In this document: positions 1 to 53,648 of the stretch, one piece after another
Numbering within the stretch: the first letter of the stretch is position 1
Layout: the number at the start of each line of letters is the position of its first letter
Sequence record: MT446403.1
Direction: 5' to 3' (one strand)
From: Escherichia virus TH29
Length of the DNA: 53,648 nt
Notes under the pieces: generated by a model
Seen by the model: only the letters and a program-made list of their open reading frames with translations
Databases searched by the model: none
Told to the model about the DNA's origin: nothing
Program-made: the position numbers and the translations under genes

Positions 1-17
1 TCAATTCCAACTAATGT
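1..17 (-). promoter_or_regulatory. Conserved motif copy tcaattCCAACTAATGT at the repeat boundary
   Basis: Member of a motif family with at least 9 copies; this one sits exactly at the first base of the terminal repeat. Confidence 0.4.
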
Positions 18-187
18 CGAATACTCTTCTTGCAAACAGGACAAGTGATGAATCTGTATGCAAAGTATCCTCGGTCATTCTTTCCTGTGTACATCTTTAA
101 GTCAGAGAACACGTAAGATATTGCAGAGAAACATACCCACACTGGCGTGTGAATGTTACGTTATCCTTTTCCAAAACTTTTATCATT

Positions 188-204
188 TCAATTCCAACTA
201 ATGT
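188..204 (-). promoter_or_regulatory. Conserved motif copy tcaattCCAACTAATGT
   Basis: Identical 17-mer to positions 1-17, 187 bp further in. Confidence 0.4.
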
Positions 205-274
205 TTCAGAATTATTCCAATATTCCAAACAAAAAGAATAATAAGAATAAATTAAAAATAAATGAAGAAAGTTC

Positions 275-304
275 TTGACACCCATTTGGCGATAGGTGTA
301 TAAT
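275..304 (+). promoter_or_regulatory. Consensus sigma70-type promoter (TTGACA, 18-bp spacer, TATAAT) with AT-rich upstream tract
   Basis: Perfect -35 TTGACA at 275-280 and perfect -10 TATAAT at 299-304; AT-rich 240-270 resembles an UP element. Points opposite to all genes. Confidence 0.6.
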
Positions 305-330
305 GCCTTTCTTCCCTAAGAGGTCAGAAT

Positions 331-346
331 CAAATCCCACTAATGT
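331..346 (-). promoter_or_regulatory. Conserved motif copy caaatCCCACTAATGT (variant)
   Basis: Third motif copy inside the terminal repeat, one mismatch to the core. Confidence 0.35.
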
Positions 347-414
347 TTCAGACGAAGTGCCGAAGGCGAATCCTCTCCCAAACCCGCTTGGAACAAGATG
401 CCTCCGGCCTGGAA

Positions 415-651
415 CTATACTGCTTTCCAATCTGAATCAAACAGTTCCTTTGGTCTTGAATAAATTATCGAATTAATTCCCAAGAAAGTGTGATTTCCAT
501 ACTTCTTAACTTCCTGGTAAGCAAATCCATCTACCCAATTACCGCAGTGGGTTTTAATCTTTGTAGCAAACAGAATTCGGTAGTAGTGACCACGTGGCTG
601 GTGGAAGAGAATATCTTCTGGCTTGATTGAGTTGATATTTAAATCAGACAT
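415..651 (-). CDS. Hypothetical small protein, lies inside the terminal repeat so it is present twice
   Basis: 78-aa ORF (MSDLNINSIKPEDILFH...); identical copy at 53338-53574. Confidence 0.5.
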   Translation of the reverse strand: MSDLNINSIKPEDILFHQPRGHYYRILFATKIKTHCGNWVDGFAYQEVKKYGNHTFLGINSIIYSRPKELFDSDWKAV

Positions 652-1192
652 TTAAGAACAATACCCCTTCGGAGAAGATGTAGTCACTGCCGTAATCTTT
701 GGTGATTGCATCCCAATCAATATATGGCGCAAGGCGGTCTGGAATATCCAGTGCTTCACTTTGCTTCAAATATTCTGCAATTGAGTCGCAACGTGTGATG
801 AACATGTCGTTCAAACTATCCACGGTGAAAATATCAATCTCACCACTACGGAATGCCGCAAGAATTACAAACAAATCAGTGTCATTTAAAAGTTCATTGA
901 ATTTGTCATACTTGCGTAGGCTGAATAGGCCATCAACAAAGCAAACTTCTGTAACATCCTCATCTCTTGATTCGAGAATGTCATAAGTCCCTGTTTCTGG
1001 GTACTCGATGCCATATTCTTCGTGTAAATATTCTGACATGTTGAAGCCATAGAGCCGCCATGCCAGACCATCAATCCAAGCATCTTCATACTCGGAATTG
1101 TTTTCGCCTGTGTAGAAACGAACCAATAAGGTTTCATCTCTACGCCAGGACTTAAGCTGTTCTACTGCTTGAGTAATGTTATCGTTTTGCAT
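644..1192 (-). CDS. Hypothetical protein
   Basis: ORF 644-1246; likely start at MQNDNIT. Acidic protein with no recognised motif. Confidence 0.5.
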   Translation of the reverse strand: MQNDNITQAVEQLKSWRRDETLLVRFYTGENNSEYEDAWIDGLAWRLYGFNMSEYLHEEYGIEYPETGTYDILESRDEDVTEVCFVDGLFSLRKYDKFNELLNDTDLFVILAAFRSGEIDIFTVDSLNDMFITRCDSIAEYLKQSEALDIPDRLAPYIDWDAITKDYGSDYIFSEGVLFLNV

Positions 1193-4156: not shown

Positions 4157-4552
4157 TCATCGATTAAGTCCCTCTCCGTTTTCGGCATGCCACTCATTAT
4201 GGTGGCGAGGACACAACCAGCGAACATCAAGTGGTTTGTTGTAATCATCATGGTGAGCATGAGTTATTTCACAGCCACATACTTGACAGGGTTTTACTTG
4301 TAATCGTCCACTCCTAATGGCAAGATTCACCTTATTTTGTGCCTTGTATTGATTAGGATACTTCTTCCTGGCATCATTAAGGCCATTACCGTGATAACCC
4401 CGTTTGCGGTCATAGTTTCGGTAATAGTCAATCTTCTCTGCACGGTTTGCCCGTACCTTAGCACATCTGCAAACTTTACATGTCTTGTCATTGGCGTAGA
4501 AGTCTGTAGGAGCTTTTAAACTCCCGCAGATTTTACATTGCTTATCCATCAA
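4157..4552 (-). CDS. HNH endonuclease
   Basis: 131 aa with Cys pairs (CKICG, CKVCRC, CQVCGC) and HAHHDDYNKPLDVRWLCPRHHNEWH HNH motif. Confidence 0.75.
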   Translation of the reverse strand: MMDKQCKICGSLKAPTDFYANDKTCKVCRCAKVRANRAEKIDYYRNYDRKRGYHGNGLNDARKKYPNQYKAQNKVNLAIRSGRLQVKPCQVCGCEITHAHHDDYNKPLDVRWLCPRHHNEWHAENGEGLNR

Positions 4553-4929
4553 AATGGAATTTCAGAGTCAAAGCCCTGCGGCTCATTTGGGTTGTATCCA
4601 GATGACTGCGGAGCTTGTTGCTGAACAGGCGCTTGCTGTTGCTGTGCAGCAGAAGGTTGCTGACGTTGCTGTTGAGCGGCAGCTTGAGGTTGAGCTTTGG
4701 CTTTAGCTTTCTCTTCACGCTTACGCATCATTTCATCAACTTGTTCTTGGGTCATGATGGTCAGTGCCAGCGAGGTAAATTCATTACCATTGGCTTGCTT
4801 GTTCCAACCAGACACCCAATACCAGATTCCGTCAACGTTAATACGTCCACGAACGTCAGGATGTTTTGGGTCTTTCTTGAAGCCATTGGAGCCGATGATG
4901 CCAGTGTTTACGTCTGAATATTGTGCCAT
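4549..4929 (-). CDS. Small protein with SSB-like disordered linker and acidic C-terminal tip (DSEIPF)
   Basis: 126 aa; Q/A/P-rich linker ending GFDSEIPF, closely resembling the E. coli SSB C-terminal DDDIPF tip; N-terminal domain only about 70 aa. Confidence 0.55.
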   Translation of the reverse strand: MAQYSDVNTGIIGSNGFKKDPKHPDVRGRINVDGIWYWVSGWNKQANGNEFTSLALTIMTQEQVDEMMRKREEKAKAKAQPQAAAQQQRQQPSAAQQQQAPVQQQAPQSSGYNPNEPQGFDSEIPF

Positions 4930-5002
4930 GATTAAGATTCTCTTAAGTTAATTTACGGTTTAAGTTTCAGCGACATTGCTAACCACGGAATAGCTTTGTC
5001 TC

Positions 5003-5019
5003 TCACATCCAACTAATGT
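5003..5019 (-). promoter_or_regulatory. Conserved motif copy tcacatCCAACTAATGT
   Basis: About 75 bp upstream of the start of gene 4549-4929. Confidence 0.45.
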
Positions 5020-5059
5020 TGAATTAATCAGGAACACTCAATGAATGCTCCTTGTTAAT

Positions 5060-5281
5060 TTAACAGGATTTACAATCGTTTATAAACTTTCTGCGCAATT
5101 TGCGCACTTGCTTTTTGGTCGGCTTCGCTGGAAAGAATTTGCATTCAACGTTGTGCCAAGGACTGCATTCTTCACCGACAAACCATAAAGTCCATCCAGC
5201 AAAGATGTTCATAGGACTGTGGCTTTTGTGGCTGTACAAATGTGTATTTACACGCATTTCATTCTCCAAGTACTTTATCAA
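5060..5281 (-). CDS. Hypothetical protein
   Basis: 73-aa basic ORF. Confidence 0.4.
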   Translation of the reverse strand: MIKYLENEMRVNTHLYSHKSHSPMNIFAGWTLWFVGEECSPWHNVECKFFPAKPTKKQVRKLRRKFINDCKSC

Positions 5282-5492
5282 AGTACCACATATTTTTGGT
5301 TATCCATTCGCCACTTTTGGATTTGACGTAGCAGGAACCATTGATAGTGTATTTGAATTCAGTTTGTTGCAATTCTGCAAAGGTTTTACACTCATACTGG
5401 TAAACAAAGTATGTAGGCACACCAATGACAACCAGAACAGACAACAACATTAGTACGAAAGGTATTACAACATCTCTCATAACCCAATTCAT
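5259..5492 (-). CDS. Small membrane protein
   Basis: 77 aa with hydrophobic N-terminal segment VIPFVLMLLSVLVVIGV. Confidence 0.45.
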   Translation of the reverse strand: MNWVMRDVVIPFVLMLLSVLVVIGVPTYFVYQYECKTFAELQQTEFKYTINGSCYVKSKSGEWITKNMWYFDKVLGE

Positions 5493-5779
5493 TACATCAC
5501 CTTTGAGATTGGGATTGGGTCGATGTTTGATTCAGGTTTATACCAGCTTACATCACCTGAATCTTTCACAAGCTCCCACAAATTGGAGAATGTACGATAA
5601 GATAAATTGCGGTTATCATCATTAACGACAAAACCCAAAGGAGATTGAATATACGCACCGAGTGTACCGTTGTTGCGAGGAACTCCGTCACCACGACCTG
5701 CGACGATTTTGTATTTCTTACCTTTGGTGAAGTTGTAATTAGTTTCACCAACATAACGTAAAATCGAATTCTTGTTCAT
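5492..5779 (-). CDS. Hypothetical protein
   Basis: 95-aa ORF with stop/start overlap to neighbours. Confidence 0.5.
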   Translation of the reverse strand: MNKNSILRYVGETNYNFTKGKKYKIVAGRGDGVPRNNGTLGAYIQSPLGFVVNDDNRNLSYRTFSNLWELVKDSGDVSWYKPESNIDPIPISKVM

Positions 5780-6006
5780 GACTTTAATTTCTCTAAAGTT
5801 GCCATAACTACCTCTTCTGTACCTTCAATAACCAAAGTGTTCAAAGGTGTGTTTACAGAAAAGAATGTGAATTTCCAAATGAATATACTCCGTCGGAATA
5901 CTCTCATGTCACCTGCCTCTACCCTCTGGTTAATTCCAGATAGAAGCATTGTCTCACCGCCAACTTTCAAATCTCGAAACTCACTTACCAATTCGTCAAG
6001 ATTCAT
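5776..6006 (-). CDS. Hypothetical protein
   Basis: 76-aa ORF. Confidence 0.4.
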   Translation of the reverse strand: MNLDELVSEFRDLKVGGETMLLSGINQRVEAGDMRVFRRSIFIWKFTFFSVNTPLNTLVIEGTEEVVMATLEKLKS

Positions 6007-6044
6007 TTCTCCACCTTCTCCAAAGTTCTCTTCAAGGTTTCTAT

Positions 6045-6356
6045 TTATAAGAAGTCGAAATCTTTAACCTTCTTATGAAATTTCTCCCATTTGGATAGGC
6101 CACCTTCAAGGCTAAAGATTCGGTTACAGCCAGATTCATCTTTAATGACAAATTGAGTTCCTGTCAGTTGAATTGGCTCAAGTGCGCCAAACAACACTTT
6201 AGGTTTTGACAAGCTGGTGGCAAGAACCACATAAACTTTGCTTGGGCAAATATCAAAAGCAAAGTCACGAGTGTAAACTAAGTCACCAACTTTCAAATAT
6301 GCTGGCAACAGGCGACCTGTGGCTGGGTCACGTTGTAAACAAGTACGTTGTTTCAT
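6045..6356 (-). CDS. Hypothetical protein
   Basis: 103-aa ORF. Confidence 0.5.
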   Translation of the reverse strand: MKQRTCLQRDPATGRLLPAYLKVGDLVYTRDFAFDICPSKVYVVLATSLSKPKVLFGALEPIQLTGTQFVIKDESGCNRIFSLEGGLSKWEKFHKKVKDFDFL

Positions 6357-6419
6357 AAATGCTCCAAGTTAATTAATAATATTCAGCAACCACTCTCATT
6401 ATAAGAATGGTTGAGGAAA

Positions 6420-6647
6420 TTATTGAAGTACACCTTGTTCACAAATGTCTGCAAACTCTGCACGATGGTCACGCTGCCATGCCCAGAATGCACCATTCAT
6501 AGGAACGACAGCACCTTTACGGAATGCTGGAGAAATGCTTTCAGCAGACTTAGTTACTTTAAATTCCAAAGGTGAAACAGCTTCACCCTCAATGATTAGG
6601 CCAACTGGAACGTAGTCTTTGGTTGAAGCAACACATTTAAATTTCAT
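6420..6647 (-). CDS. Hypothetical protein
   Basis: 75-aa ORF. Confidence 0.45.
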   Translation of the reverse strand: MKFKCVASTKDYVPVGLIIEGEAVSPLEFKVTKSAESISPAFRKGAVVPMNGAFWAWQRDHRAEFADICEQGVLQ

Positions 6648-6900
6648 GGTACAAAACCCCTAATTCAGATTCTAATTTAAATTCACGGAAGAAATCCATT
6701 GTTACAAATCGGACTTTACCTTCGTCATCAACTACGTTACAGGAAATGTCGGAGTGGACCATCCTGCCTAGCTTCAAAGCAACTTCTGAAAGATTCGCTT
6801 CGCCAGTCCCTGAGATTACACGGTAGATGCGATATGGTGTAAAGCCGCTTAAAGAGTTATTACGGCTTGGGACAATCATCATGCCTGTTCTAGTAGCCAT
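6637..6900 (-). CDS. Hypothetical protein
   Basis: ORF 6637-6951; probable start at MATRTGMM. Confidence 0.45.
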   Translation of the reverse strand: MATRTGMMIVPSRNNSLSGFTPYRIYRVISGTGEANLSEVALKLGRMVHSDISCNVVDDEGKVRFVTMDFFREFKLESELGVLYHEI

Positions 6901-6996
6901 AATAACTCCAATATTAAAAGTACATGAATGCGCCAATAGTAAGTAGCACAAGTGGAAACATCAGAATACAGAATACTAATTTCTTTACGATATCCA

Positions 6997-7170
6997 TTAT
7001 TTCACCAGGAAGTAGAGAACAAGGGCAACACCAACACATGCAATGATTGTTGGCATATAATTATCAATTTTACGATATTTACGTTCGACTGGCTTCTTGC
7101 CTTCGATGGCATTCATCAGTTCTTGATGATTAATCTGCTGCATTAATGTGTTGAATTGCTGGTCGTTCAT
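6997..7170 (-). CDS. Small tail-anchored membrane protein (57 aa, absent from the ORF track)
   Basis: Hand translation MNDQQFNTLMQQ...MPTIIACVGVALVLYFLVK; ATG at 7168-7170 preceded by GGAGG. Confidence 0.45.
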   Translation of the reverse strand: MNDQQFNTLMQQINHQELMNAIEGKKPVERKYRKIDNYMPTIIACVGVALVLYFLVK

Positions 7171-7355
7171 TTAGCCTCCAGAATTTGGTTTAAAGAGCTG
7201 AACACGATTTCCTCATGTTCGTCAGGTGTACATGCATTGATGTATTCAAAGTCATAACCAACAAACTTCTCCGCCCACTGTTGTAAACGAAGTAAAGAAT
7301 TGAAGTACAAACGTTGCTCTACACCATTTAATTTAAAGTAGACGATGAAGTCCAT
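7167..7355 (-). CDS. Hypothetical protein
   Basis: 62-aa ORF. Confidence 0.45.
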   Translation of the reverse strand: MDFIVYFKLNGVEQRLYFNSLLRLQQWAEKFVGYDFEYINACTPDEHEEIVFSSLNQILEAK

Positions 7356-7356
7356 G

Positions 7357-7599
7357 TTAACCTCTTACTTTCAGGAAATCTGGATGTGCGGCAGTTGCCA
7401 CAACTTTGTGATGTTTATCATTCTGGATTGCTTGCCAAACGTATTCAGGATACGCTGCATTCTTCCACACCAGCTTGTTTTCGTAAATTGATGTACCAGA
7501 CATTAAGTCTGCTAACATTATTGCTCTGGTTTTAATATTAACCAAAGCATGAGAAACAACACCATCACGATTGATATATTGATACAGTGCATAATTCAT
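7357..7599 (-). CDS. Hypothetical protein
   Basis: ORF 7357-7659; likely start ATG at 7597-7599 (MNYALYQ) with AAGGA RBS, adjacent to the upstream stop. Confidence 0.5.
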   Translation of the reverse strand: MNYALYQYINRDGVVSHALVNIKTRAIMLADLMSGTSIYENKLVWKNAAYPEYVWQAIQNDKHHKVVATAAHPDFLKVRG

Positions 7600-7600
7600 T

Positions 7601-7849
7601 TCAGAATCCTTTAGTGTACCCAACAGTTTTGCGCAGAATGATTTCATCATTTGAATCATCTGGCTCTAATTCGATTTCAATATTGACAACAATATTGTCG
7701 CTAAAAGTACATGCCTTACTTGAATCAAAGAACTTTACAGCATTATACTTATCTGACTCATTTACTTTAATCCACTTCACAGAACGAACAGTAAAGATTT
7801 GTCCATCTTGCAGGTCTTTAAAGTAAGCCGCTTTAGTAACAGTATCCAT
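7601..7849 (-). CDS. Hypothetical protein
   Basis: 82-aa ORF with AGGAGA RBS; first gene downstream of the 7.86-9.1 kb non-coding region. Confidence 0.55.
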   Translation of the reverse strand: MDTVTKAAYFKDLQDGQIFTVRSVKWIKVNESDKYNAVKFFDSSKACTFSDNIVVNIEIELEPDDSNDEIILRKTVGYTKGF

Positions 7850-8133
7850 TTTATTCTCCTAAGTTAAAAGAAAACTCCCGTCATAACGATTGTGGAGGTC
7901 TTGTGTTACCTTAATCCACCTTAAAGAATCAGGGAGTTACATATTAGTCTGTGTGTGCTGCTCTCGGTTACTTCCTAGTATTGCGAAGCTCTTGCATTCC
8001 CGCAAACCACACCTTTTGCACAGACCGTATGTGACACAACAAGTGCCGAAAACTACAATGATTAGCTTGGAGACATAATCTCTCTAAAATCTGTCACACA
8101 ATTTCAGCAGAATTTACAGAGATTTGGTCTTAT

Positions 8134-8149
8134 TCACATGCAACTAATG
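8134..8149 (-). promoter_or_regulatory. Conserved motif copy tcacatgCAACTAATGa (variant)
   Basis: Inside the 7.86-9.1 kb non-coding control region. Confidence 0.35.
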
Positions 8150-8342
8150 ATAAATGGACATGCTTAATTGCAACCAATTCATCTGCCAAATAGACGAATT
8201 TAGTCACAATCAAACATGCATCATTAATTACAGGTTTGCTCCTATCTTGGAATGTATTTGGCACATCAAGAAGTGGCGCAACAGGTACGGAAAACCGACC
8301 ATGTACAGCATAATAAAACTAATTAAATAAAGGGTTTTATCC

Positions 8343-8360
8343 CAATATTGTCACAATATT
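8343..8360. repeat. Tandem palindrome CAATATTG-tca-CAATATT, operator-like
   Basis: CAATATTG is self-complementary; the same 18-mer recurs at 8592-8609 with degenerate copies nearby and at 11383-11601; often followed by ACATGC. Confidence 0.5.
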
Positions 8361-8591
8361 TACATGCGATGATAAAGCCTTCGCTTGGCTGGAAGCCAGT
8401 ATTCATGCGGGTTGCAAGAATATTGGGTCAATACTGATATAGCTATTACATGCGAAATTGGCACAAATACTGTTACAAAATTAACATGCCGGATTGGTAG
8501 ACAATTGTATCTTCGAGGTGATTAGTCCTCTAACAATTCTGCCACATTCTAACATGCCAATTTGTAGCAATATTTACATGCCATACTATGA

Positions 8592-8609
8592 CAATATTGT
8601 CACAATATT
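8592..8609. repeat. Second exact copy of CAATATTG-tca-CAATATT
   Basis: Identical 18-mer to 8343-8360. Confidence 0.5.
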
Positions 8610-8983
8610 TGTTGCTCAAATTCGGGTGCGGCTACGAGACTAATCTCGATGCTTTGCTCCGACTCTTCTCTTCTTTCGAATTCTGATTGAAAGAAAGAAG
8701 CATGTCCAAAAGTTCCAGTCTTGCCAAAGTTATCTCCCGGCTTGTGGGTGGGCCTTGATAATAGGAGAATACAATATTGGAACAATTGGTCATGCTTGTA
8801 TTGAAGAACAGTTTCGAATGATAATCCTACTTCACACATGGTTGTTGGAGCTTTGTCTGGCCAAAGACAGGGAGTTCAATGATTGCCACATCATTACAAC
8901 ACTGTGTGTTTAGTTGACATGCTGAAATGTTTCTAGAATGATTTCAACATGACATGCGGAATACTTCTCCGTATTCTGTTACT

Positions 8984-9000
8984 TCACATCCAACTAATGT
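8984..9000 (-). promoter_or_regulatory. Conserved motif copy tcacatCCAACTAATGT
   Basis: Just downstream (minus sense) of the RNAP terminator and upstream of the repeat-rich region. Confidence 0.45.
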
Positions 9001-9062
9001 CGAATATTGAAACAATATTACATGCAGCAATATTGCTTGAATATTGGGAATTAAAGGATTTA

Positions 9063-9109
9063 ATTAATAAAGAATAAAGAAAGGGCCATCACCTTTCGAT
9101 GACAGCCCT
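9063..9109 (-). terminator. Rho-independent terminator after the RNA polymerase gene
   Basis: Hairpin AGGGC/GCCCT plus CATC/GATG at 9082-9109, followed on the minus strand by UUCUUUAUUCUUUAUU, directly after the stop at 9117-9119. Confidence 0.6.
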
Positions 9110-9116
9110 AGGTCTA

Positions 9117-11057
9117 TTACTGGCAGAAGTAGTAAGCGTGTTCGCTCATAAGCAGCTCTTCAGTAACAATGTTCTCGTGGTACATGTTGATGCCACCAAG
9201 TTGCTTAGACAGAGATTCAAACTGGTTATTATGAACAAAGATTTCAATATAAGCAGAACGAATAACTTCCATCATTTTAGGAGCATCAGCCAAGCAGCAA
9301 CGGAAACAATCGTGAATTGAAGTAAAGCCACGAAGACCAGCTTCTTTAGCTTTGACTGCAACAGTACGAGCAACCAATGCGTCAATACCTTGAATGTAGT
9401 TAACAACGAAGGTACGCTTGAATTCTTCTTTAGTTGGATTGGACTCACGAATGGTCCAAGGCTTATTCTCCTGAATCTGACCAAAGATGACACGAGTTTG
9501 ACTATCAACACGAATGCTGAATGCATCACAAACATCACGAGATGGGAAGCAAGGCTTCATTACAACTTGACCATCAGTGTGCTTATAGGTGATGTACTCT
9601 TTGTTGAGTTCAACACAACGAGCAAATGCAGCATCAGCAGCTTTCTCAATGAACATGTTAATCTTAGCACCCAATGCGTTATGGATTGCTTCTACACACA
9701 GTTCAGCAAATGCCTCAGCTTTCTCCATAGGAATCTGGAGCGCTTCTGTCATGTATGCAATGAAGTCAGAAGAACCAGTTAATGCAGCTTTACCACCACC
9801 ATATTGGATAGCCATGTATGGAGTTTTGATAAACTTACGACCAGCTTTCGGATTCAAGAATTCATCCATAATTTCAGCGGATGGTTTCATTGAAGAACGG
9901 TCTAATAACTTCAACAGTTCACGGAGAGATAACTGGTATGGGTCAGATGCTTTAGTCTCAGAATCAACCAGACCTGTAGCACGAGCCATTTCCATGTTAC
10001 CAGCAATGAATGCCAGATATTGAGTACCAGAACATTTAGCATCTAAGCCAAAGCCTACACGAGAATCACACTCACCTGTAGTCTCAAACTTGAACCAATC
10101 CAGAGCCAGACGAACATAAGTGAATGGCTTAGAAGGACGCTCACCTTTAGGCATGTTCAGCATACGAGCCAAAGAACCAGCAGGATTCTGTGCAACATAG
10201 GTTAAACGTTTTGCAGAAGTCCAGTCTCCACCAGCAATATCTTCCAGCTCAAGCATGAACATGTTGTATGCCAGAGTTGTTGAACCATCAGCATTAAACT
10301 TGCTCACAGTGTTCTCAACATTGTGGGAATACAGGCAACGAGCAAAGTCAGATGATTGTGGGTTAGGACCAGCACATGCTACATGATACAAACGACCACG
10401 GTTATCAGCAAAGTAGTCAGAGAACAGAGTGTCCTGACCAACCATTGCTACAGCATTGTTCCAAACATGGAGTTCAGTCTGGATTGCTTCTGGCATCTGT
10501 AAGCCACCAAATGTACGTTGTTCTAACATGGAAGAGATAACCCTAACCATTGTTGCATCAACGTGATATTCAGTATCTTGCAGGAATTCGATTGCAGCTT
10601 TCAGAGTTTTGGATGGCTTAACTTTGCCACCTTTAACGAAAGGCTTGCGACGAGATTCAGTTGTTACCTTCTCAGTGAATGGAACTGAGGTATCTTTGGT
10701 TGTAACCAGTTCAACCCATGCATCAGTCATCTGGAACGATTTGTCCTCGTTCATGGTGATGAAACCGAAGTGTTTAGCCAGACCAATCAGGTTGATAGCT
10801 GGGTCAACATAGTGCATTGACTTTAAGTCGTTGTTGTAACGGTTGGCATCAGCAATGGAAGCAGAAGCCAGTTCAACCATCGAGATAGCTGGAATAACGT
10901 CATCACGCGTGAAAGACGTCATCATCTTGAATATGGCTAAGGCAGCAATAGCACAAGTCTGAGGCTGCATATAGTTCTGCTTCTCTTTGGCACGGTATAC
11001 CAGAGCGGTGATAGCAGGGACAACAGATTTGATAGTTTGAGTAGTGATAGTAGTCAT
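9117..11057 (-). CDS. Single-subunit (T7-like) DNA-dependent RNA polymerase, compact form of about 646 aa
   Basis: Motifs align to T7 RNAP: DNRGRLYHV, LDAKCSGTQYLA (motif A), RKFIKTPYMAIQYGGG (motif B), IHDCFRCCLAD (motif C). Start set at MTTITTQ (ATG 11055-11057, GGAGA RBS), not the ORF-track TTG at 11144. Confidence 0.85.
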   Translation of the reverse strand: MTTITTQTIKSVVPAITALVYRAKEKQNYMQPQTCAIAALAIFKMMTSFTRDDVIPAISMVELASASIADANRYNNDLKSMHYVDPAINLIGLAKHFGFITMNEDKSFQMTDAWVELVTTKDTSVPFTEKVTTESRRKPFVKGGKVKPSKTLKAAIEFLQDTEYHVDATMVRVISSMLEQRTFGGLQMPEAIQTELHVWNNAVAMVGQDTLFSDYFADNRGRLYHVACAGPNPQSSDFARCLYSHNVENTVSKFNADGSTTLAYNMFMLELEDIAGGDWTSAKRLTYVAQNPAGSLARMLNMPKGERPSKPFTYVRLALDWFKFETTGECDSRVGFGLDAKCSGTQYLAFIAGNMEMARATGLVDSETKASDPYQLSLRELLKLLDRSSMKPSAEIMDEFLNPKAGRKFIKTPYMAIQYGGGKAALTGSSDFIAYMTEALQIPMEKAEAFAELCVEAIHNALGAKINMFIEKAADAAFARCVELNKEYITYKHTDGQVVMKPCFPSRDVCDAFSIRVDSQTRVIFGQIQENKPWTIRESNPTKEEFKRTFVVNYIQGIDALVARTVAVKAKEAGLRGFTSIHDCFRCCLADAPKMMEVIRSAYIEIFVHNNQFESLSKQLGGINMYHENIVTEELLMSEHAYYFCQ

Positions 11058-11124
11058 TTGTAAGTCTCCAAGATTGTGTATGATTTGAATGAAACGGATT
11101 ATAATAGCGTAGCCATTACACAAT

Positions 11125-11140
11125 TCACGTCCAACTAATA
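11125..11140 (-). promoter_or_regulatory. Conserved motif copy tcacgtCCAACTAATa
   Basis: About 70 bp upstream of the RNAP start codon. Confidence 0.45.
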
Positions 11141-11326
11141 TCACAAACCTGTGCCATTGTTAGCACAGCACAGGGACTTTGACCTTGACTCATAAGCGAA
11201 GCGCCTAACTTGGTGTTGTTTGAAAGCCGATAGGCTGCAGGAAAAAGTTGGGGCAGGGACCGTATTTAAGTCCGATAGGACGTTGGGCTTCCCCTCCCCG
11301 CCACCTCAAAAATAAAAATAATATCG

Positions 11327-11401
11327 CCACAATTCTAGTCTCGTCAATATCGTTACAATTCTAGTCTCATTAATATTGTAGCAATTCGAGTCTCATTAAT
11401 T
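11327..11401. repeat. Three tandem 24-25 bp direct repeats (iteron-like)
   Basis: ccacaattctagtctcgtcaatat / gttacaattctagtctcattaatat / gtagcaattcgagtctcattaatt, head to tail. Confidence 0.6.
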
Positions 11402-11452
11402 CCGTAACAATATTTAAATTAAAAAAAATTATATAAAAATTTTTTATAACAT
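11402..11452. promoter_or_regulatory. Strongly AT-rich tract next to the iterons, possible DNA unwinding element
   Basis: ccgtaacaatatttaaattaaaaaaaattatataaaaattttttataac is nearly pure A/T. Confidence 0.4.
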
Positions 11453-11717
11453 AGTCGGACTTCTGTTCGAACAAATTTCGGCTAGATACAGCTGACCGAT
11501 TGTGAACGAATCTATGTCTAGGTACAGTTGACCGACCATGTACCATTTGGTTTTGAATTTTACGCATTCCTAATATTACTCTTAATATTGTAGCAATATT
11601 GGGAATAAATAAATATTTAACTTACTTATTTTATTCTAGCTCAAAGAGAAACGACGCTAACGCATCGAATCTCTTCTCACATATTAACTGACAAACGTCA
11701 GCCTTCACCATATCCAA

Positions 11718-12836
11718 TCATAATTCAAATCCACCGAGTGCATTAGTATCAACTTCAGAGTCAATTTGCCCAACCAGGTAGGAACTAATCTCAGTCTCCT
11801 GTGGAGCAACCTGTACAGCATCCGAATTCAACCATGCATTAATCCACGGAATAGGATTCGTAGCATCCTTAAATGGAGCATCTAATCCAACTGCTTGCAT
11901 ACGAATATTCGTGATATATTCCACATATCCACACAGAATTTGCTTGTTTAAGCCTATCATTGAGCCATCTTTGAACAGATAATCGGCCCAATCTTTCTCT
12001 TGTTGAGCAGCATCTTCGAACAATTTCTGGCATTCTTCACGACATTCTTGAGCAATTTCGCCCATTTCTGGGTCATCTTTTCCACTCGCCAGAATATTCA
12101 ACATGTGCTGAGTTCCGGTCAAATGGAGTGCTTCATCTCGTGCAATCAGTCGAATAATCTTGGCATTTCCTTCCATTAGCTTACGTTCAGCGAAGGCAAA
12201 TGAGCAAGCAAAGCTAACATAGAAGCGAATTGCTTCCAGTGCGTTGATAGACATGAGGCATAAATAGAGCTTCTTCTTCAACTCACGAAGACTAATTTCA
12301 TGACCGACATGATTCCCTTCCCCAAACAACTGCCATAATGCAGTAAGTTGTTGGAGTTCGTCGTAATATTGGGAGATGCCAATTGCCCGTGCTTTGATAT
12401 GTTCGTTAGTTACGATTTCATCAAAGATTACGCTTGGGTCTGTAACGATGTTACGGATAATGTGAGTGTAAGAACGTGAATGGATAGTCTCGGAGAAGGA
12501 CCAAGTTTCAATCCAAGTTTCAAGCTCAGGAATGCTAACGATTGGAAGCAAAACTGTGTTAGGCCCACGTCCCTGAATGGAGTCCAGAAGGATTTGATAG
12601 CGCAAATTACTGGTGAAAATGTGCTGCTCATTTGGTGGGAGCTTCTGATAATCAATACGGTCTTGTGAAACATCCACCTCTTCTGGTCGCCAGAAGAATG
12701 ACAATTGTTTCTCAATCAACTTCTCGAATATGCCATACTTCTGCTGGTCATAGCGAGCAACGTTGACGTTCTGACCAAAGAACATTGGTTCTAATAGTTG
12801 GTTATTCTTGGTTTGTGAAAAGGTAGTGTAAGACAT
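11718..12836 (-). CDS. nrdB: Class Ia ribonucleotide reductase small subunit (NrdB), very close to enterobacterial NrdB
   Basis: 372 aa; N-terminus [22 protein letters not shown] and internal [29 protein letters not shown] are near-identical to E. coli NrdB as recalled from memory (roughly 80 percent, not computed). Confidence 0.9.
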
Positions 12837-23498: not shown

Positions 23499-23520
23499 CT
23501 ATTGAAATTAATACATATTC

Positions 23521-23559
23521 AAATAATATTAAAGAAGAATGCCGAGACGAATCCCGGCA
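23521..23559 (-). terminator. Rho-independent terminator after the tape measure gene
   Basis: Minus-strand RNA forms UGCCGGGA-UUCG-UCUCGGCA (8 bp with one G-U, UUCG tetraloop) followed by UUCUUCUUUAAUAUUAUUU; stem is perfect only on the minus strand. Confidence 0.55.
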
Positions 23560-23564
23560 CTTTC

Positions 23565-35952: not shown

Positions 35953-37988
35953 GCCGAGTAGTTGGCACTTGGGCCGGAGAATTCGATTGCAACCATATCT
36001 GAAACGTTATCGACACAATCGTCGTGTCCAGTACCACTACCCAAAGAAGTGAATCCAAGTATTTCACGTCTAACGTGGTCAATGTGTTCATGACCAGCAG
36101 GGAAGAATATCCTCTTTTGGGAGAAATATGGGATTGCGTTAAGGAATCGAGTTACCTTGTCATTACCGTTAATGCCATCACGAGGCAGTGGTAAAACTCG
36201 GACACTCCCATCTCTAATAAATTGTTGGTTCAAGAACTGTCCAGCAGACTTATCTTCCATGTACAAAGCACGAGGAATGCAGCCTACATATTTCAAATCC
36301 AACTTATTGCATTTATTCCAGAAGTCGATAATAGCAGTCTTGAGTTCTGGAGTTTCAAACTTACCGAGCATGATATCTAAACAATAAACATCCCGCTCTT
36401 TAGTCACGCCCCAATGCTTAAGGACCGAATAGTCAGAATAAGACTTGGCAGTTGATGCCGTATCAGCAGTGATGAAACTTCTAACTATACGACTTCTGTC
36501 GAAAGCGTCTGGCTCATACTCTTGCCACCAGTCTTCTTTAACAAGGCCATGACCTTGAGCAGACGGGTCGCCAGCATACTGTGAGTTGTATGTGTATGGG
36601 TTGGACTCCTTCATTGCCTCCAAAGATTCTAAACTCTTACGTGAAGGCCACAATGCAGACTTCTCTTCTTTCCTGTTCAAATCATAGAGAATAGGGATAG
36701 CATGAGTGTAGTTCTGCTTCTTAATTAATTTGTCGTACCACTGAGCACTGCCAACACCTTTCTCAATAATCGCTGGGATATTGAGATAGTGGTATTTATC
36801 AGAGGAGCCACCACGGAGTATATAACCAACTAAATCTTGGTCATGAACTCGCTGCATGATGATAACCATCGGAGTACGTGAACACTTAATTTGGTTTCCA
36901 CGTGAATCTGTTATGCACCCATCATTGGCAAGACGGGACATAAAGGTGTTATCAAATCGGTCGTTGATTTCTGCTCGAACAGTGTCAGAGTAGGCATCCT
37001 TCGGTTTGATAACGTCATCCACCACAAAGCAACCGGAGTAGTTTGCGACAAGAAGTCCAGCACCTTTGCCAGTTAGCTTACCACCAGTAGGTACTGCGTG
37101 CATAACTCCAGCTTTGGTCGTACCCCAGCGTTCAAGTGAACGTTTGTTAGGGTCGATTCTCACCTTCGGGAATATGCGTTGGAACAGCGGGTCCAACATT
37201 ACTGCACGGATGTAGCCACTAGATTCCAATACAACGTCTTCTGCATAGGAGGTGATGATGTTGTGGCTTGATTCATTGTGGCAGAATGAATACAGCGGCA
37301 ATGCAATACTCATAAGCTGAGTTTTGGAGTGTCGTGGTGGAATGGTGACAATTAGTCGGTCAATCTCACCGTCAACAACTTTCTGCCCTACTTTGAATAT
37401 TACATCGTGAAAGTCTTGAGACTGGAATGGGAATCCCATCTGAATGTGGAACTGCCATTTACCAAATGCCTCAAAACTCTTCATCAAAATTTTACGGACT
37501 TGTTCTGCAACCTTGGCTGGGATTACAGTTGGGTCAACGTTATGCGGGTCATAAAGGATTTTATCAACAAGCTCTTGTGTATTGTCGTGTTCAGAAGTTG
37601 GCTCTTCTAAAGTCGAACCAGCTACACGGTCTGTTACACCAGCTTGGATTCCTTTCTTCAACTCGTCGGCATACGCAGTTGAATCTTTCTTATCGCCAGA
37701 GCGAAGGCGCTCAAGTTGTGCTCGGAAAACGGAACGCAATACAGCATCGTTTTCAAGACCCTGGCCTTCTAACTCTGCTTGAATTTGTTCTTCATAGCTG
37801 TCAACTATCGCAGTATTTTCTGAAATATATCGACGGAGCAATGGCAAAGATAGAATGCAGAATCTTTCTCTTGAGACTTTTAATACGTCACCGTAGTGTT
37901 TGGCAAGATACGAGGCTACTGTATCATTAAACTCCGGTCCGAGGTCATCAGTCTTTGACATTGATTCGTTCTCTTTGGTTTTAATCAC
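35943..37988 (-). CDS. Terminase large subunit
   Basis: 681 aa; N-terminal ATPase region (VTIPPRHSKTQL, VVDDVIKPKD) and C-terminal nuclease-like acidic motifs (GHDDCVDNVSD). Confidence 0.8.
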   Translation of the reverse strand: MIKTKENESMSKTDDLGPEFNDTVASYLAKHYGDVLKVSRERFCILSLPLLRRYISENTAIVDSYEEQIQAELEGQGLENDAVLRSVFRAQLERLRSGDKKDSTAYADELKKGIQAGVTDRVAGSTLEEPTSEHDNTQELVDKILYDPHNVDPTVIPAKVAEQVRKILMKSFEAFGKWQFHIQMGFPFQSQDFHDVIFKVGQKVVDGEIDRLIVTIPPRHSKTQLMSIALPLYSFCHNESSHNIITSYAEDVVLESSGYIRAVMLDPLFQRIFPKVRIDPNKRSLERWGTTKAGVMHAVPTGGKLTGKGAGLLVANYSGCFVVDDVIKPKDAYSDTVRAEINDRFDNTFMSRLANDGCITDSRGNQIKCSRTPMVIIMQRVHDQDLVGYILRGGSSDKYHYLNIPAIIEKGVGSAQWYDKLIKKQNYTHAIPILYDLNRKEEKSALWPSRKSLESLEAMKESNPYTYNSQYAGDPSAQGHGLVKEDWWQEYEPDAFDRSRIVRSFITADTASTAKSYSDYSVLKHWGVTKERDVYCLDIMLGKFETPELKTAIIDFWNKCNKLDLKYVGCIPRALYMEDKSAGQFLNQQFIRDGSVRVLPLPRDGINGNDKVTRFLNAIPYFSQKRIFFPAGHEHIDHVRREILGFTSLGSGTGHDDCVDNVSDMVAIEFSGPSANYSAWM

Positions 37989-38166
37989 AATCCACTAATG
38001 GCGGAGTTTGCACGGGATTGATGCGAATGATATTGCCCAAACTAGAATCAGCTTTTAAAATGAGCCGATTTAGTGGCATGAATGAATCACAGATAGGACA
38101 TTGTTGGACGATGAAATCATCCTCTGCCACTTCGTAATGGCAGTTACTACATTGAATTGTGCGCAT
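37981..38166 (-). CDS. Zinc-ribbon protein
   Basis: 61 aa with CSNCHY...CPICD Cys pairs; directly upstream of the terminase gene. Confidence 0.5.
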   Translation of the reverse strand: MRTIQCSNCHYEVAEDDFIVQQCPICDSFMPLNRLILKADSSLGNIIRINPVQTPPLVDCD

Positions 38167-42876: not shown

Positions 42877-43122
42877 TTAAATTTCAATAATGTGAGAGTC
42901 AATGTCCAGGTCGGACAGGATAGATTGTGTTACTGCGAAATCTTCCGATTCCTTTAATGCTTTCAGGGCACTTTCGTAGGTGATATCGCCCTGATAATCA
43001 CTTCCAAATAATGCCGAGGCGTGCATCTCAATTGCAGACACCGCCAGTTGTGTGGCCGGAATATCTCCAGCCGCTTGATGGAGTTCCATCTGTTGTTTGT
43101 CGTACAAGGCTAAAACACGCAT
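42877..43122 (-). CDS. Small acidic protein
   Basis: 81 aa with about 14 Asp/Glu versus 4 Lys/Arg. Confidence 0.45.
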   Translation of the reverse strand: MRVLALYDKQQMELHQAAGDIPATQLAVSAIEMHASALFGSDYQGDITYESALKALKESEDFAVTQSILSDLDIDSHIIEI

Positions 43123-50985: not shown

Positions 50986-51002
50986 TCACATCCAATTAAT
51001 GT
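50986..51002 (-). promoter_or_regulatory. Conserved motif copy tcacatCCAAtTAATGT
   Basis: One mismatch to the core; upstream of gene 50570-50908. Confidence 0.45.
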
Positions 51003-51031: not shown

Positions 51032-51706
51032 TCAATACATATTGAATCGTTCGATTGTTTTGATTACCAAATCCTTTGTCTCAGCGACAGTGAGTTCAGT
51101 GATGATTGATTCGTCATAACCCTCAATCTGGATTGCTACAAAACGCCCAACTCCTGTTACGGTAAGTCGGTTAGTTCTGTCACGAACAACTACACCAGCT
51201 TCTTGCGCGACTGCTCGCAACAATTTCCAGCGTAAAGTTCGGTTTGGTACAGCAAAGCCCTTTGTCAAGAACAACTCTTTCATGAGTTCCCCAAGGCAAA
51301 CAGCTTCAATGTTTTGTCCTCTTCCAACTAATTCTTGCAACAGGCACAACGTCAACATTTCTAAATTGTTGAAGTGACCAGCGCGCTCCAAGTTAAAGAA
51401 CTCTGGAGGAACAGTCGAACGAGATTTAACAGCTTGCTTATATGCACGTTCTTCTTCCTGTGCAGCAAGCATCAGCATCTCTGGCTTAATGTACTTCATA
51501 GCAGAGAAGCCAGCGCGGGTGGCTTTAATTATGCGACAAGCCTCTTTCATCTTGTAGCGTTGCCACTCACCGCGCTTCGATTCTGGATTAAAATGGACCC
51601 ACATAATGATGACATCTTCCTTGGCAAGATAGACGGCATCATTATCATTGAGCCATTGCTTGCACGTTGATAGTGCAATCTCTTTGTCATCATCATGATA
51701 AGACAT
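51032..51706 (-). CDS. Hypothetical early protein
   Basis: ORF 51032-51763; likely start MSYHDDDK at 51706. Confidence 0.5.
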   Translation of the reverse strand: MSYHDDDKEIALSTCKQWLNDNDAVYLAKEDVIIMWVHFNPESKRGEWQRYKMKEACRIIKATRAGFSAMKYIKPEMLMLAAQEEERAYKQAVKSRSTVPPEFFNLERAGHFNNLEMLTLCLLQELVGRGQNIEAVCLGELMKELFLTKGFAVPNRTLRWKLLRAVAQEAGVVVRDRTNRLTVTGVGRFVAIQIEGYDESIITELTVAETKDLVIKTIERFNMY

Positions 51707-51707
51707 T

Positions 51708-52085
51708 TTAGTGGCCTTGTAGGATACGTTTGTTCGCAGTTTCTGCGTCGATTCCCAAATCAACTAATGTAACCAAGCACTGTGAAATCCGCTCTTGCGC
51801 AGCTTTCTCCAGAATTTGGTATTTTTCGTCGTTAACGCCTAACACATTCTTGGCATGAATGAGTGTAGCCATTAGGCCATGCCCCAAAGCAACTGCTTGC
51901 ATTGCCTGGAGTTCAAAGTTGATTGTGATACCAGCGAGTTCATGCTCTTTCTGGATAATCTCAATCAACTCTTCTTTCGATTTGTCTTGTAAGTTCAAAA
52001 TGGAACTCCGTACATTGGCTGGTCTGTTGTCCAGCTGTAAATGAAAGATTTGGACAGAAGATGCTCGACTGGCTTGCCGAAGCAA
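51708..52085 (-). CDS. Hypothetical early protein
   Basis: 125-aa ORF; N-terminal extent uncertain because it overlaps the upstream ORF. Confidence 0.45.
   Translation of the reverse strand: MLRQASRASSVQIFHLQLDNRPANVRSSILNLQDKSKEELIEIIQKEHELAGITINFELQAMQAVALGHGLMATLIHAKNVLGVNDEKYQILEKAAQERISQCLVTLVDLGIDAETANKRILQGH
51755..51770 (-). promoter_or_regulatory. Conserved motif copy ccaaatCAACTAATGT (variant)
   Basis: About 55 bp upstream of the MSYHDDDK start, inside the 3' end of the upstream gene. Confidence 0.35.
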
Positions 52086-52923: not shown

Positions 52924-53648
52924 TCAATTCCAACTAATGTCGAATACTCTTCTTGCAAACAGGACAAGTGATGAATCTGTATGCAAAGTATCCTCGGTCA
53001 TTCTTTCCTGTGTACATCTTTAAGTCAGAGAACACGTAAGATATTGCAGAGAAACATACCCACACTGGCGTGTGAATGTTACGTTATCCTTTTCCAAAAC
53101 TTTTATCATTTCAATTCCAACTAATGTTTCAGAATTATTCCAATATTCCAAACAAAAAGAATAATAAGAATAAATTAAAAATAAATGAAGAAAGTTCTTG
53201 ACACCCATTTGGCGATAGGTGTATAATGCCTTTCTTCCCTAAGAGGTCAGAATCAAATCCCACTAATGTTTCAGACGAAGTGCCGAAGGCGAATCCTCTC
53301 CCAAACCCGCTTGGAACAAGATGCCTCCGGCCTGGAACTATACTGCTTTCCAATCTGAATCAAACAGTTCCTTTGGTCTTGAATAAATTATCGAATTAAT
53401 TCCCAAGAAAGTGTGATTTCCATACTTCTTAACTTCCTGGTAAGCAAATCCATCTACCCAATTACCGCAGTGGGTTTTAATCTTTGTAGCAAACAGAATT
53501 CGGTAGTAGTGACCACGTGGCTGGTGGAAGAGAATATCTTCTGGCTTGATTGAGTTGATATTTAAATCAGACATTTAAGAACAATACCCCTTCGGAGAAG
53601 ATGTAGTCACTGCCGTAATCTTTGGTGATTGCATCCCAATCAATATAT
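52924..53648. repeat. Right copy of direct terminal repeat (identical to 1-725)
   Basis: Exact repeat of the left end, including the three motif copies, the sigma70 promoter (53198-53227) and the 78-aa ORF (53338-53574). Confidence 0.9.

Follow-up and report, generated by a model that had tools for sequence, protein, structure and literature searches.

Promoters of the T7 group are contiguous elements of about 20 bp, which occur in many copies and in one orientation, often after terminators and before 5' stem-loops, and are read by a single-subunit RNA polymerase equipped with a specificity loop. One of them, phiOL of T7, lies near the left genome end. The virion RNA polymerase of phage N4, a distant T7-like enzyme, uses hairpin promoters with a stem of 5-7 bp and a 3-nt loop. 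A relative of the phage studied here, phiEcoM-GJ1, was reportedly characterized by Jamalludeen et al. (2008, Appl Environ Microbiol 74:516). Its GenBank record (EF460875) contains nine 'putative phage promoter' features, which are the same element as the repeated motif analyzed below, and the record of phage SA91KD annotates the same putative phage promoters. For the group of Pectobacterium phage PP101 (PM1 shows ~94% ANI to PP101), the published account hypothesises eight consensus promoters of a T7-like polymerase (PMC6989608), whose consensus is given there as a figure. In PM1 itself, the motif was found at equivalent positions.

The window analyzed in this study is the whole sequence record MT446403.1 (53,648 nt), i.e. 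the complete genome of Escherichia virus TH29, a phiEcoM-GJ1-like myovirus (Chaseviridae, Carltongylesvirus), in which every gene is carried by the minus strand. All nine phiEcoM-GJ1 sites have same-position counterparts in TH29, with the same placement around the genes for polymerase, SSB, antirestriction and baseplate hub. The 20-mers of phiEcoM-GJ1 promoters 1, 2 and 3 (e.g. CGACATTAGTTGGATGTGAA) are identical at TH29 positions 8984, 8134 and 5003, while the other sites differ by 0-3 bases. TH29 has one extra copy, bounding a 187-bp insertion, and its counterparts of P6, P8 and P9 are more degenerate than those of phiEcoM-GJ1. Both genomes also have a copy ahead of the polymerase gene, which is unannotated in EF460875. 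Both promoter sets are predictions, and the motif as a putative promoter is already on record (phiEcoM-GJ1, 2008).

Motif copies and their surroundings in the TH29 genome

The motif is a repeated element of 17-20 bases with the gene-sense consensus T-N3-ACATTAGTTGGA(T/A)(G/T)TGAA. With at most one mismatch, the 11-mer CCAACTAATGT gave 12 matches (1.36 expected), and the 17-mer with at most three mismatches also gave 12 (0.27 expected); in neither case did any of 100 shuffles reach that number. Strong and weak sites were separated with a 22-column weight matrix scanned over the genome, a check proposed in the initial annotation: eight unique sites scored 28-34 and all other sequence 16 or less. 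The element is contiguous, asymmetric and about 20 bp long, its information content falling to nearly zero beyond the 22 columns. Since positions 1-725 are identical to 52924-53648 (the genome ends overlap by 725 bp), the sites at 1-17, 188-204 and 330-346 recur at 52924-52940, 53111-53127 and 53253-53269, which brings the strong sites to 11. Seven of the eight are intergenic in a genome with 14% non-coding sequence (binomial P = 7e-6). Counting from the polymerase gene, all strong copies fall within approximately 14 kb, roughly the first genome quarter (Table 1).

These results agree only in part with the initial annotation. Against its count of at least nine copies, there are eight unique strong sites (11 with the overlap); the copy it placed at 51755-51770 is within an ORF and has a weight-matrix score under 8. 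Its statement that all copies are in gene sense is borne out, every strong site being on the minus strand with a top antisense score of 12.5, as is that of a copy ahead of the RNA polymerase gene. The distance to start codons, given as 55-150 bp, is in fact 46-285 nt, including 68 (RNA polymerase), 74 (SSB, start at 4929), 78, 145 and 285 nt. The absence of copies from the 12-50 kb block holds only for strict matches, and the inference of a different promoter class for that block is weakened because degenerate copies lie within it (23513-23529, 42998-43014 and 37985-38001), one of them at a conserved site ahead of the baseplate-hub gene.

Table 1. Motif copies and associated features of the TH29 genome
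Feature	Sequence	Position	Strand	Remarks
Pre-polymerase motif copy, weaker variant	ATATTAGTTGGACGTGA	11125..11141	-	score 28.6; 68 nt before RNA polymerase ATG at 11057
P1, downstream of RNA polymerase gene	ACATTAGTTGGATGTGA	8984..9000	-	score 33.9; 20-mer identical to phiEcoM-GJ1 'putative phage promoter 1'
P2	TCATTAGTTGCATGTGA	8134..8150	-	score 28.2; identical to phiEcoM-GJ1 promoter 2
P3, upstream of SSB gene		5003..5019	-	score 32.0; identical to phiEcoM-GJ1 promoter 3
P4 (duplicate 53253-53269)	ACATTAGTGGGATTTGA	330..346	-	score 28.4; matches phiEcoM-GJ1 promoter 4
P5a (duplicate 53111-53127)	ACATTAGTTGGAATTGA	188..204	-	score 31.7
P5b (duplicate 52924-52940)	ACATTAGTTGGAATTGA	1..17	-	score 31.7; exactly at edge of 725-bp end overlap
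Second three-motif cluster, in 725-bp end overlap		52924..53269	-	scores 31.7, 31.7, 28.4
P7, last strong copy before replication block	ACATTAATTGGATGTGA	50986..51002	-	score 29.7; phiEcoM-GJ1 promoter 7 counterpart
Degenerate copy between tape-measure and baseplate-hub genes	ATATTATTTGAATATGT	23513..23529	-	score 10.9; phiEcoM-GJ1 promoter 9 counterpart
Degenerate copy inside small ORF after DNA polymerase gene	GCATTATTTGGAAGTGA	42998..43014	-	score 15.9; phiEcoM-GJ1 promoter 8 counterpart
Weak motif-like site inside 224-aa ORF	GAATTAGTTGGAAGAGGA	51317..51334	-	score <8; phiEcoM-GJ1 promoter 6 counterpart
Possible weak copy, 24 nt before large-terminase ATG	CCATTAGTGGATTGTGA	37985..38001	-	score 10.9
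Weak match inside ORF	ACATTAGTTGATTTGGG	51754..51770	-	one mismatch to 11-mer; weight-matrix score <8
Sigma-70-like promoter (TTGACG, 18-nt spacer, TATTAT), upstream of polymerase gene		11318..11347	-	10/12 consensus matches
Terminator-like hairpin directly upstream of pre-polymerase copy		11148..11174	-	
Terminator-like hairpin after polymerase stop codon, upstream of P1		9082..9109	-	12-bp stem then T run
Terminator-like hairpin after tape-measure gene, before degenerate copy		23538..23561	-	
Gene for 646-aa single-subunit RNA polymerase, presumed motif reader		9117..11057	-	Pfam PF00940, E = 2e-18

Terminator-like hairpins precede three sites, two strong ones and the weak baseplate copy: the pre-polymerase copy follows its hairpin directly, P1 lies 82 nt past the hairpin at 9109-9082 (SA91KD has a terminator annotated at the equivalent place), and the copy at 23513-23529 is found 9 nt past its hairpin and 24 nt before the baseplate-hub start (23489). 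Several copies have stable stem-loops just downstream, among them the conserved stem-loop GAATACGGAGAAGTATTC after P1. The next convincing ORF is 285 nt past P2, and P7 lies 78 nt before a 112-aa ORF. The sigma-70-like site at 11318-11347 corresponds to the feature annotated in phiEcoM-GJ1 as 'putative host sigma70 promoter'.

Comparison with related phages, a further check named in the initial annotation, revealed the motif in four further genera, where it occupies equivalent positions and differs in sequence by lineage. The pre-polymerase position is kept in Mangalitsa, PM1, 4HA13, PA_03, L010 and phiEcoM-GJ1 (571-587 of its record), that of P7 in Mangalitsa, PM1, 4HA13 and PA_03, and that of P3 in five genomes, where it forms a conserved island within diverged flanks. 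More generally, in diverged intergenic regions of TH29, Mangalitsa, 4HA13, PM1 and PA_03 the motif is the only conserved block. The pre-baseplate-hub position is shared by TH29, phiEcoM-GJ1 and three phages of two further genera, and better motif matches occupy it in Mangalitsa, PM1 and 4HA13. At the copy before the large-terminase gene, which overlaps the end of a small ORF, the ATTAGT core is present in Mangalitsa, 4HA13 and PA_03 and lost in PM1. The copy at 42998-43014 lies in coding sequence, and therefore its conservation is not independent evidence.

The encoded RNA polymerase and lineage variants of the motif

The product of the gene downstream of the 11125-11141 copy is confidently modelled as a T7-type enzyme whose fold includes a specificity-loop-like hairpin. 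It aligns with T7 motifs A and C, and the AlphaFold model (pLDDT 91.8) has T7 RNA polymerase (3e2e_A, E = 2.8e-19) as its top Foldseek match, with residues 513-537 forming a beta-hairpin that resembles the specificity loop; a phmmer search of the polymerase against PDB gave no match at E <= 0.001. The protein is 95% identical to that of phiEcoM-GJ1. Conservation of its hairpin (SIRVDSQTR-VIFGQ..KPWTIRE) goes along with that of the motif in every case; the hairpin tip is variable, and PA_03 has a 4-aa insertion in it.

The motif variants are GGATGTGA in Carltongylesvirus, GGAATTGA in 4HA13, GAGTGTGA in Proteus phage PA_03, GGA(A/T)GTGA in PM1 and nnGTTAGTTGGG in a contig with a 55% identical polymerase. 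In IMG/VR, 13 of the 16 stretches with the exact 17-mer are chasevirus-like contigs. Phages of the sister subfamily Nefertitivirinae, whose polymerase is 33-36% identical, lack the motif and instead have a different, hairpin-type repeat (GGCTCTnCGAGCC then AAAG) just after the polymerase gene. Across five lineages of Cleopatravirinae the motif thus appears to co-vary with the polymerase lineage, which is a correlation; the apparent link between hairpin and motif variants spans four to five lineages, and their overall divergence is a confounding factor.

We infer that the motif is most probably a double-stranded promoter for the phage's own 646-aa T7-type single-subunit RNA polymerase. This cognate-promoter reading, suggested in the initial annotation, is the best supported, although two of the arguments offered for it failed. 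A point against it is the copy upstream of the polymerase gene, as the first polymerase must then be made another way. The host RNA polymerase would transcribe this gene first, with 11347-11318 as the candidate sigma-70 promoter. The phage enzyme may then bind the TTAGTTGG core via the beta-hairpin 513-537, melt the A/T-rich (T/A)(G/T)T segment and initiate at the conserved GAA or close to it. Transcription from the eight strong copies would cover the polymerase gene, the genes for SSB, peptidase and antirestriction, and the small ORFs of the early/middle class; with the weaker copy driving the polymerase gene itself, positive autoregulation is proposed. The last strong copy (50986) would lead into the replication block. 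A further point against this reading is that, with strong copies restricted to the first ~14 kb, late genes need long read-through or weak sites; they may be reached by read-through aided by weak copies, e.g. after the terminator 23561-23538.

Comparison with known promoter classes

The likeness to T7-group promoters is one of architecture, not sequence. As in that group, the TH29 element is contiguous, ~20 bp long, multicopy and uniformly oriented, with copies after terminators and before stem-loops, and a weak copy is found near the left genome end, like phiOL. A T7-fold polymerase with catalytic motifs and a specificity-loop-like hairpin, together with a contiguous, asymmetric, intergenic element of ~17-23 bp in multiple gene-sense copies, would place the motif functionally among promoters of T7-like polymerases. 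Unlike in the T7 group, the strong copies occupy only a limited part of the genome, and the enzyme is shorter (646 versus 883 aa in T7) and ~15% identical in a structural alignment. The resemblance to T7/SP6/K11 promoters mentioned in the initial annotation is no better than that of a shuffled motif: against the T7, T3, SP6 and K11 consensus sequences, the best ungapped match covers 7-9 positions (shuffle p = 0.35-0.99). Membership in the T7-group sequence family (23-bp consensus, +1 G) was therefore rejected, the similarity being at chance level and the CACTATAG core absent, and the alignment fixes no conserved purine as +1, both of which also count against the promoter reading.

Sigma-70 promoters, with hexamers 16-18 nt apart, were rejected as well, and the poor fit to sigma70 spacing noted initially is upheld: nothing is conserved outside the motif and sigma-70-like sites are not enriched in TH29 (24 found versus 33.9 expected). 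The same data bear on the view that the motif is an operator of another phage DNA-binding activator or repressor acting with the host RNA polymerase, like the T4 MotA box. Strand-specific, intergenic and lineage-specific repeats would fit such a phage-encoded regulator too, and many of the small early ORFs lack a functional assignment; however, no -10/-35 element is conserved at any fixed distance, a -10-like hexamer pairs with one motif copy only, and operators are usually palindromic, which the TH29 element is not. The MotA-type arrangement itself (box at about -30 plus -10) was rejected, as downstream columns hold ~0-0.5 bits and TAnnnT does not recur at a constant spacing. Altogether, an operator is a very unlikely explanation.

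The N4 system resembles that of TH29 in that its promoters are also read by a distant T7-like polymerase, but the conserved inverted repeat of N4 promoters is not a feature of the TH29 motif, hairpin-type repeats being found in Nefertitivirinae instead. A hairpin promoter of the N4 type was rejected, as the GGAATTGA variants no longer allow the ACAT/ATGT pairing and show no compensating changes. This loss also counts against an element acting at the RNA level (processing site or 5'-UTR signal), for which its strand specificity and location upstream of genes could speak; with the variable start-codon distance, no consistent pairing of the motif in predicted folds, zero Rfam matches and copies directly after terminators, where upstream RNA would be scarce, such a role is extremely unlikely.

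Motif copies at genome ends and module boundaries

The copies could also be recombination or packaging signals at module boundaries or genome ends, with transcription secondary. Several observations point this way: the 187-bp segment without a counterpart in phiEcoM-GJ1 is bounded upstream by P5a and downstream by P5b, many alignments to relatives break at TH29 position 187, the TH29 end overlap stops exactly at a copy, the flopper record begins inside the homologous copy, and in PYps23T the terminal repeat of 2339 bp reported from experiments has both ends inside copies. However, in PM1 (2665 bp), Mangalitsa and 4HA13 the terminal repeat begins ~120-185 nt ahead of the pre-polymerase copy and extends to ~350-415 nt past P1; being displaced from the copies, these ends are not at motifs. 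Moreover, a packaging site would not be expected in as many as eight dispersed copies, and promoters that are repeated can be expected to recombine simply as a by-product of their repetition, so that signals of this kind are exceedingly improbable as the primary function.

With the motif taken as the promoter of the phage polymerase, its copies might in addition be preferred break or recombination points that shape genome ends and modules, which we regard as very unlikely. If promoter-bound transcription complexes did direct nicking or end formation, this would constitute a new link between the phage polymerase and genome-end processing.

Motif sites and their surroundings

A weight-matrix search of the window separated eight unique strong sites (scores of 28-34) from all others (16 or less; top antisense score, 12.5), and the repeated motif reported in the initial annotation is real. 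The window also contained 12 matches to the 11-mer with at most one mismatch (1.36 expected) and 12 to the 17-mer with at most three (0.27 expected). Alignment of the copies in gene sense revealed about 22 conserved columns, T-N3-ACATTAGTTGGA(T/A)(G/T)TGAA, and no conservation beyond them. Seven of the eight strong sites are intergenic, in a genome with a non-coding share of 14% (P = 7e-6), and the next start codon follows after 46-285 nt (68 nt for the polymerase gene and 74 nt for the SSB gene). One copy listed earlier, at 51755-51770, turned out to be a poor match located within an ORF. The late block (12-50 kb), previously described as free of the motif, does contain weak copies, of which the one before the baseplate-hub gene has kept its position across relatives.

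Coordinates, sequence variants and lengths of the motif and related features
Feature	Genome	Coordinates, sequence or length	Strand	Source
Motif copy before the polymerase gene	Window	11125-11141	gene sense	weight matrix
Motif copy P1	Window	8984-9000	gene sense	weight matrix
Motif copy P2	Window	8134-8150	gene sense	weight matrix
Motif copy P3, before the SSB gene	Window	5003-5019	gene sense	weight matrix
Motif copy	Window	50986-51002	gene sense	weight matrix
Motif copy	Window	53253-53269	gene sense	weight matrix
Second copy of 53253-53269	Window	330-346	gene sense	end overlap
Motif copy	Window	53111-53127	gene sense	weight matrix
Second copy of 53111-53127	Window	188-204	gene sense	end overlap
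Motif copy	Window	52924-52940	gene sense	weight matrix
Second copy of 52924-52940	Window	1-17	gene sense	end overlap
T7-type RNA polymerase	Window	9117-11144 as listed; real start, ATG at 11057	-	Pfam
Motif variant	Carltongylesvirus	GGATGTGA
Motif variant	4HA13	GGAATTGA
Motif variant	PM1	GGA(A/T)GTGA
Motif variant	Proteus PA_03	GAGTGTGA (also written TTGAGTGTGAA)
GGCTCTnCGAGCC repeat	Aeromonas phage pAh6-C (L007)	23740, 24497, 24531, 25084, 28885
GGCTCTnCGAGCC repeat	Shewanella phage Spp001 (L012)	9114, 9143, 9173	gene sense
Motif copies holding repeat ends	PYps23T	L003 1-20; L004 2520-2536, 4855-4870
Terminal repeat	PM1	2665 bp
Terminal repeat	Mangalitsa	3234 bp
Terminal repeat	4HA13	3120 bp

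All long ORFs of the window lie on the minus strand; besides the polymerase, Pfam identified the RNR small subunit, family A DNA polymerase, primase/helicase and large terminase, and a tRNA scan of the window found none. The pre-polymerase copy is directly preceded by a hairpin (11174-11148), and a terminator-like hairpin (9109-9082) is placed between the polymerase stop codon and P1. Another hairpin (23561-23538) follows the tape-measure gene, and 9 nt further on is a degenerate copy (23513-23529), 24 nt upstream of the baseplate-hub gene. Several copies have stable stem-loops just downstream, that of P1 being conserved across genera. A stretch of some 750 nt following P1 and P2 (7850-8600) is without a convincing ORF (weak ORFs of 44-58 aa only) and is annotated inconsistently among relatives; it could represent a long leader or non-coding transcripts.

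Four other views of the motif were rejected. The proposed resemblance to T7/T3/SP6/K11 promoters did not rise above chance level. For an RNA structure or hairpin promoter, the folds were inconsistent, with neither compensating changes nor an Rfam match. A MotA-like box plus -10 lacked an element at fixed spacing. The motif, which the initial annotation had described as not fitting sigma-70 spacing, is not a match to sigma-70 promoters either: no -35 or -10 is conserved and sigma-70-like sites are not enriched. One sigma-70-like site (11347-11318) is the counterpart of a host promoter annotated in phiEcoM-GJ1.

Earlier predictions and conservation among relatives

Megablast of window 4500-12000 matched 75 phage records, the top matches being Escherichia and Yersinia phages of the phiEcoM-GJ1 group (Chaseviridae, Cleopatravirinae, Carltongylesvirus), with identities of up to 95%. 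The phiEcoM-GJ1 record (EF460875) has nine features named "putative phage promoter". Its promoters 1-3 are 20-mers identical to those at window 8984, 8134 and 5003; the window sites 330, 188 and 50986 are the counterparts of promoters 4, 5 and 7, and the weak sites 51317, 42998 and 23513 those of promoters 6, 8 and 9. The pre-polymerase copy is present there too (record positions 571-587), unannotated. The SA91KD record has the same promoter annotation, citing the 2008 phiEcoM-GJ1 paper, and eight polymerase-specific promoters were hypothesised for this phage group in the PP101 paper (PMC6989608). The motif is therefore already known as a promoter prediction. The ICTV profile of Chaseviridae states that promoters of the family were not identified, the ST32 paper is silent on promoters, and our literature search found no chasevirus transcriptome.

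The motif occurs at the same places in all four relatives compared (Mangalitsa, 4HA13, PM1 and Proteus PA_03): on either side of the polymerase gene, ahead of the SSB gene, behind the antirestriction gene and ahead of the homologue of a 112-aa ORF. The copy before the baseplate-hub gene was found at the same aligned position in three of them (Mangalitsa, PM1 and 4HA13). The motif is the sole conserved block in these intergenic regions, and each lineage has one variant common to its copies. The polymerases of 4HA13, PM1 and Proteus PA_03 share 77%, 71% and 66.5% identity with that of the window. In a metagenomic contig with a 55%-identical polymerase only TTAGTTGG(G/A)nnTGAA is kept, and in contig L011 (polymerase 41% identical) a de novo search gave no clear or convincing motif. 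The exact 17-mer was found in 16 IMG/VR stretches, 13 of them in chasevirus-like contigs and three being singletons, which were judged by motif count alone.

The sister subfamily, Nefertitivirinae, encodes polymerases 33-36% identical to that of the window. Its members pAh6-C and Spp001 have no weight-matrix match at the polymerase-flanking sites; pAh6-C has none, and Spp001 a single weak one (score 13) within its polymerase gene. In both, copies of another repeat, GGCTCTnCGAGCC followed by (A/C)AAAG, form a cluster immediately behind the polymerase gene. This repeat has a stem of 5 bp and a loop of 3 nt, is arranged in tandem in Spp001 (29-30 nt apart), does not constitute a gene-sense terminator and is reminiscent of N4 hairpin promoters; it may be the Nefertitivirinae promoter.

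Genome ends and the 187-bp indel

Window positions 1-725 are identical to 52924-53648. This overlap of exactly 725 bp has one boundary in the interior of the antirestriction gene and the other at the final base of a motif copy. The homologous copy contains the first base of the flopper record, and both ends of the 2339-bp terminal repeat published for Yersinia phage PYps23T (MW147598) fall within motif copies, at a matching position in each, directly after ATTAGTTGGA. That genomes of this group end at motif copies was nevertheless rejected, since the repeat boundaries of PM1, Mangalitsa and 4HA13 lie elsewhere: their repeats start at a conserved AAATACGGTCCCTAC (window ~11268), which precedes the pre-polymerase copy by approximately 120-185 nt, and they end 350-415 nt past P1. 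The differing PYps23T ends may be a mapping artefact from a shared 10-mer, or a real difference. Because the 2.6-3.2 kb repeats of the relatives surround the polymerase gene, the overlap of 725 bp probably reflects the assembly rather than the physical terminal repeat. By homology, that repeat would be expected to run from about window 11268 to about 8640 and to include the polymerase gene together with two copies of the motif. The sigma-70-like promoter (11268-11347 region) is placed immediately beyond the position homologous to the relatives' left genome end, so of the polymerase gene copies in virion DNA it would lie ahead of the right-end one only.

The 187 bp between copies 188-204 and 1-17 are absent in phiEcoM-GJ1, where the two bounding copies are fused into one. 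This unit comprises a 170-bp segment (18-187 and 52941-53110) plus one motif copy, is flanked by direct copies, and a short ORF begins 2 nt past its upstream copy. The indel looks like the product of recombination between promoter copies; it accounts for the break at 187 in the alignments of many relatives and may be a mundane reason for contigs ending at motif copies.

The polymerase and the predicted promoter function

Chaseviruses are myoviruses with a podovirus-type RNA polymerase. A phmmer search of the window's 646-aa polymerase against PDB gave no match at the default cut-off and only weak T7 matches at E <= 10, in which motifs A (D..CSGxQ) and C (HD) are aligned; structure prediction was therefore used. 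The AlphaFold model (56 homologues as input; pLDDT 91.8) had T7 RNA polymerase 3e2e_A as its top structural match (E = 2.8e-19, TM 0.59). Residues 513-537 of the model form a beta-hairpin, SIRVDSQTR-VIFGQ-IQEN-KPWTIRE, whose QTR...GQ pattern resembles the T7 specificity loop (Q744-T-R746...G753-Q754, a numbering that agrees with the phmmer alignment). The hairpin strands are conserved in all homologues of more than ~60% identity, and the tip (residues 527-531) varies between genera, with a 4-aa insertion in PA_03. Such conservation and variation would fit, without proving, a matched pair of polymerase and motif. Homologues with 35-52% identity also occur in assemblies of Hafnia alvei, Lelliottia wanjuensis, Pseudomonas brenneri and P. 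laurylsulfatiphila (proteins P0074, P0078, P0104 and P0109); these may belong to prophage-like elements or contaminating phage contigs.

The motif is most likely the cognate promoter of the encoded polymerase, the reading that the initial annotation had suggested and, as a prediction, still the most probable one. The window itself is an ordinary case, a new genome with a known predicted element. The older prediction gains strength because the positions of the motif are conserved from genus to genus, its variants are specific to lineages, the sister subfamily lacks it, and the polymerase model has a T7 fold and a hairpin like the specificity loop. If confirmed, the two would constitute a compact pair of polymerase and promoter with no sequence relationship to the pairs of T7, T3, SP6 and K11 and with possible use as an orthogonal expression system, and the phage polymerase would act chiefly on the early and middle genome regions.
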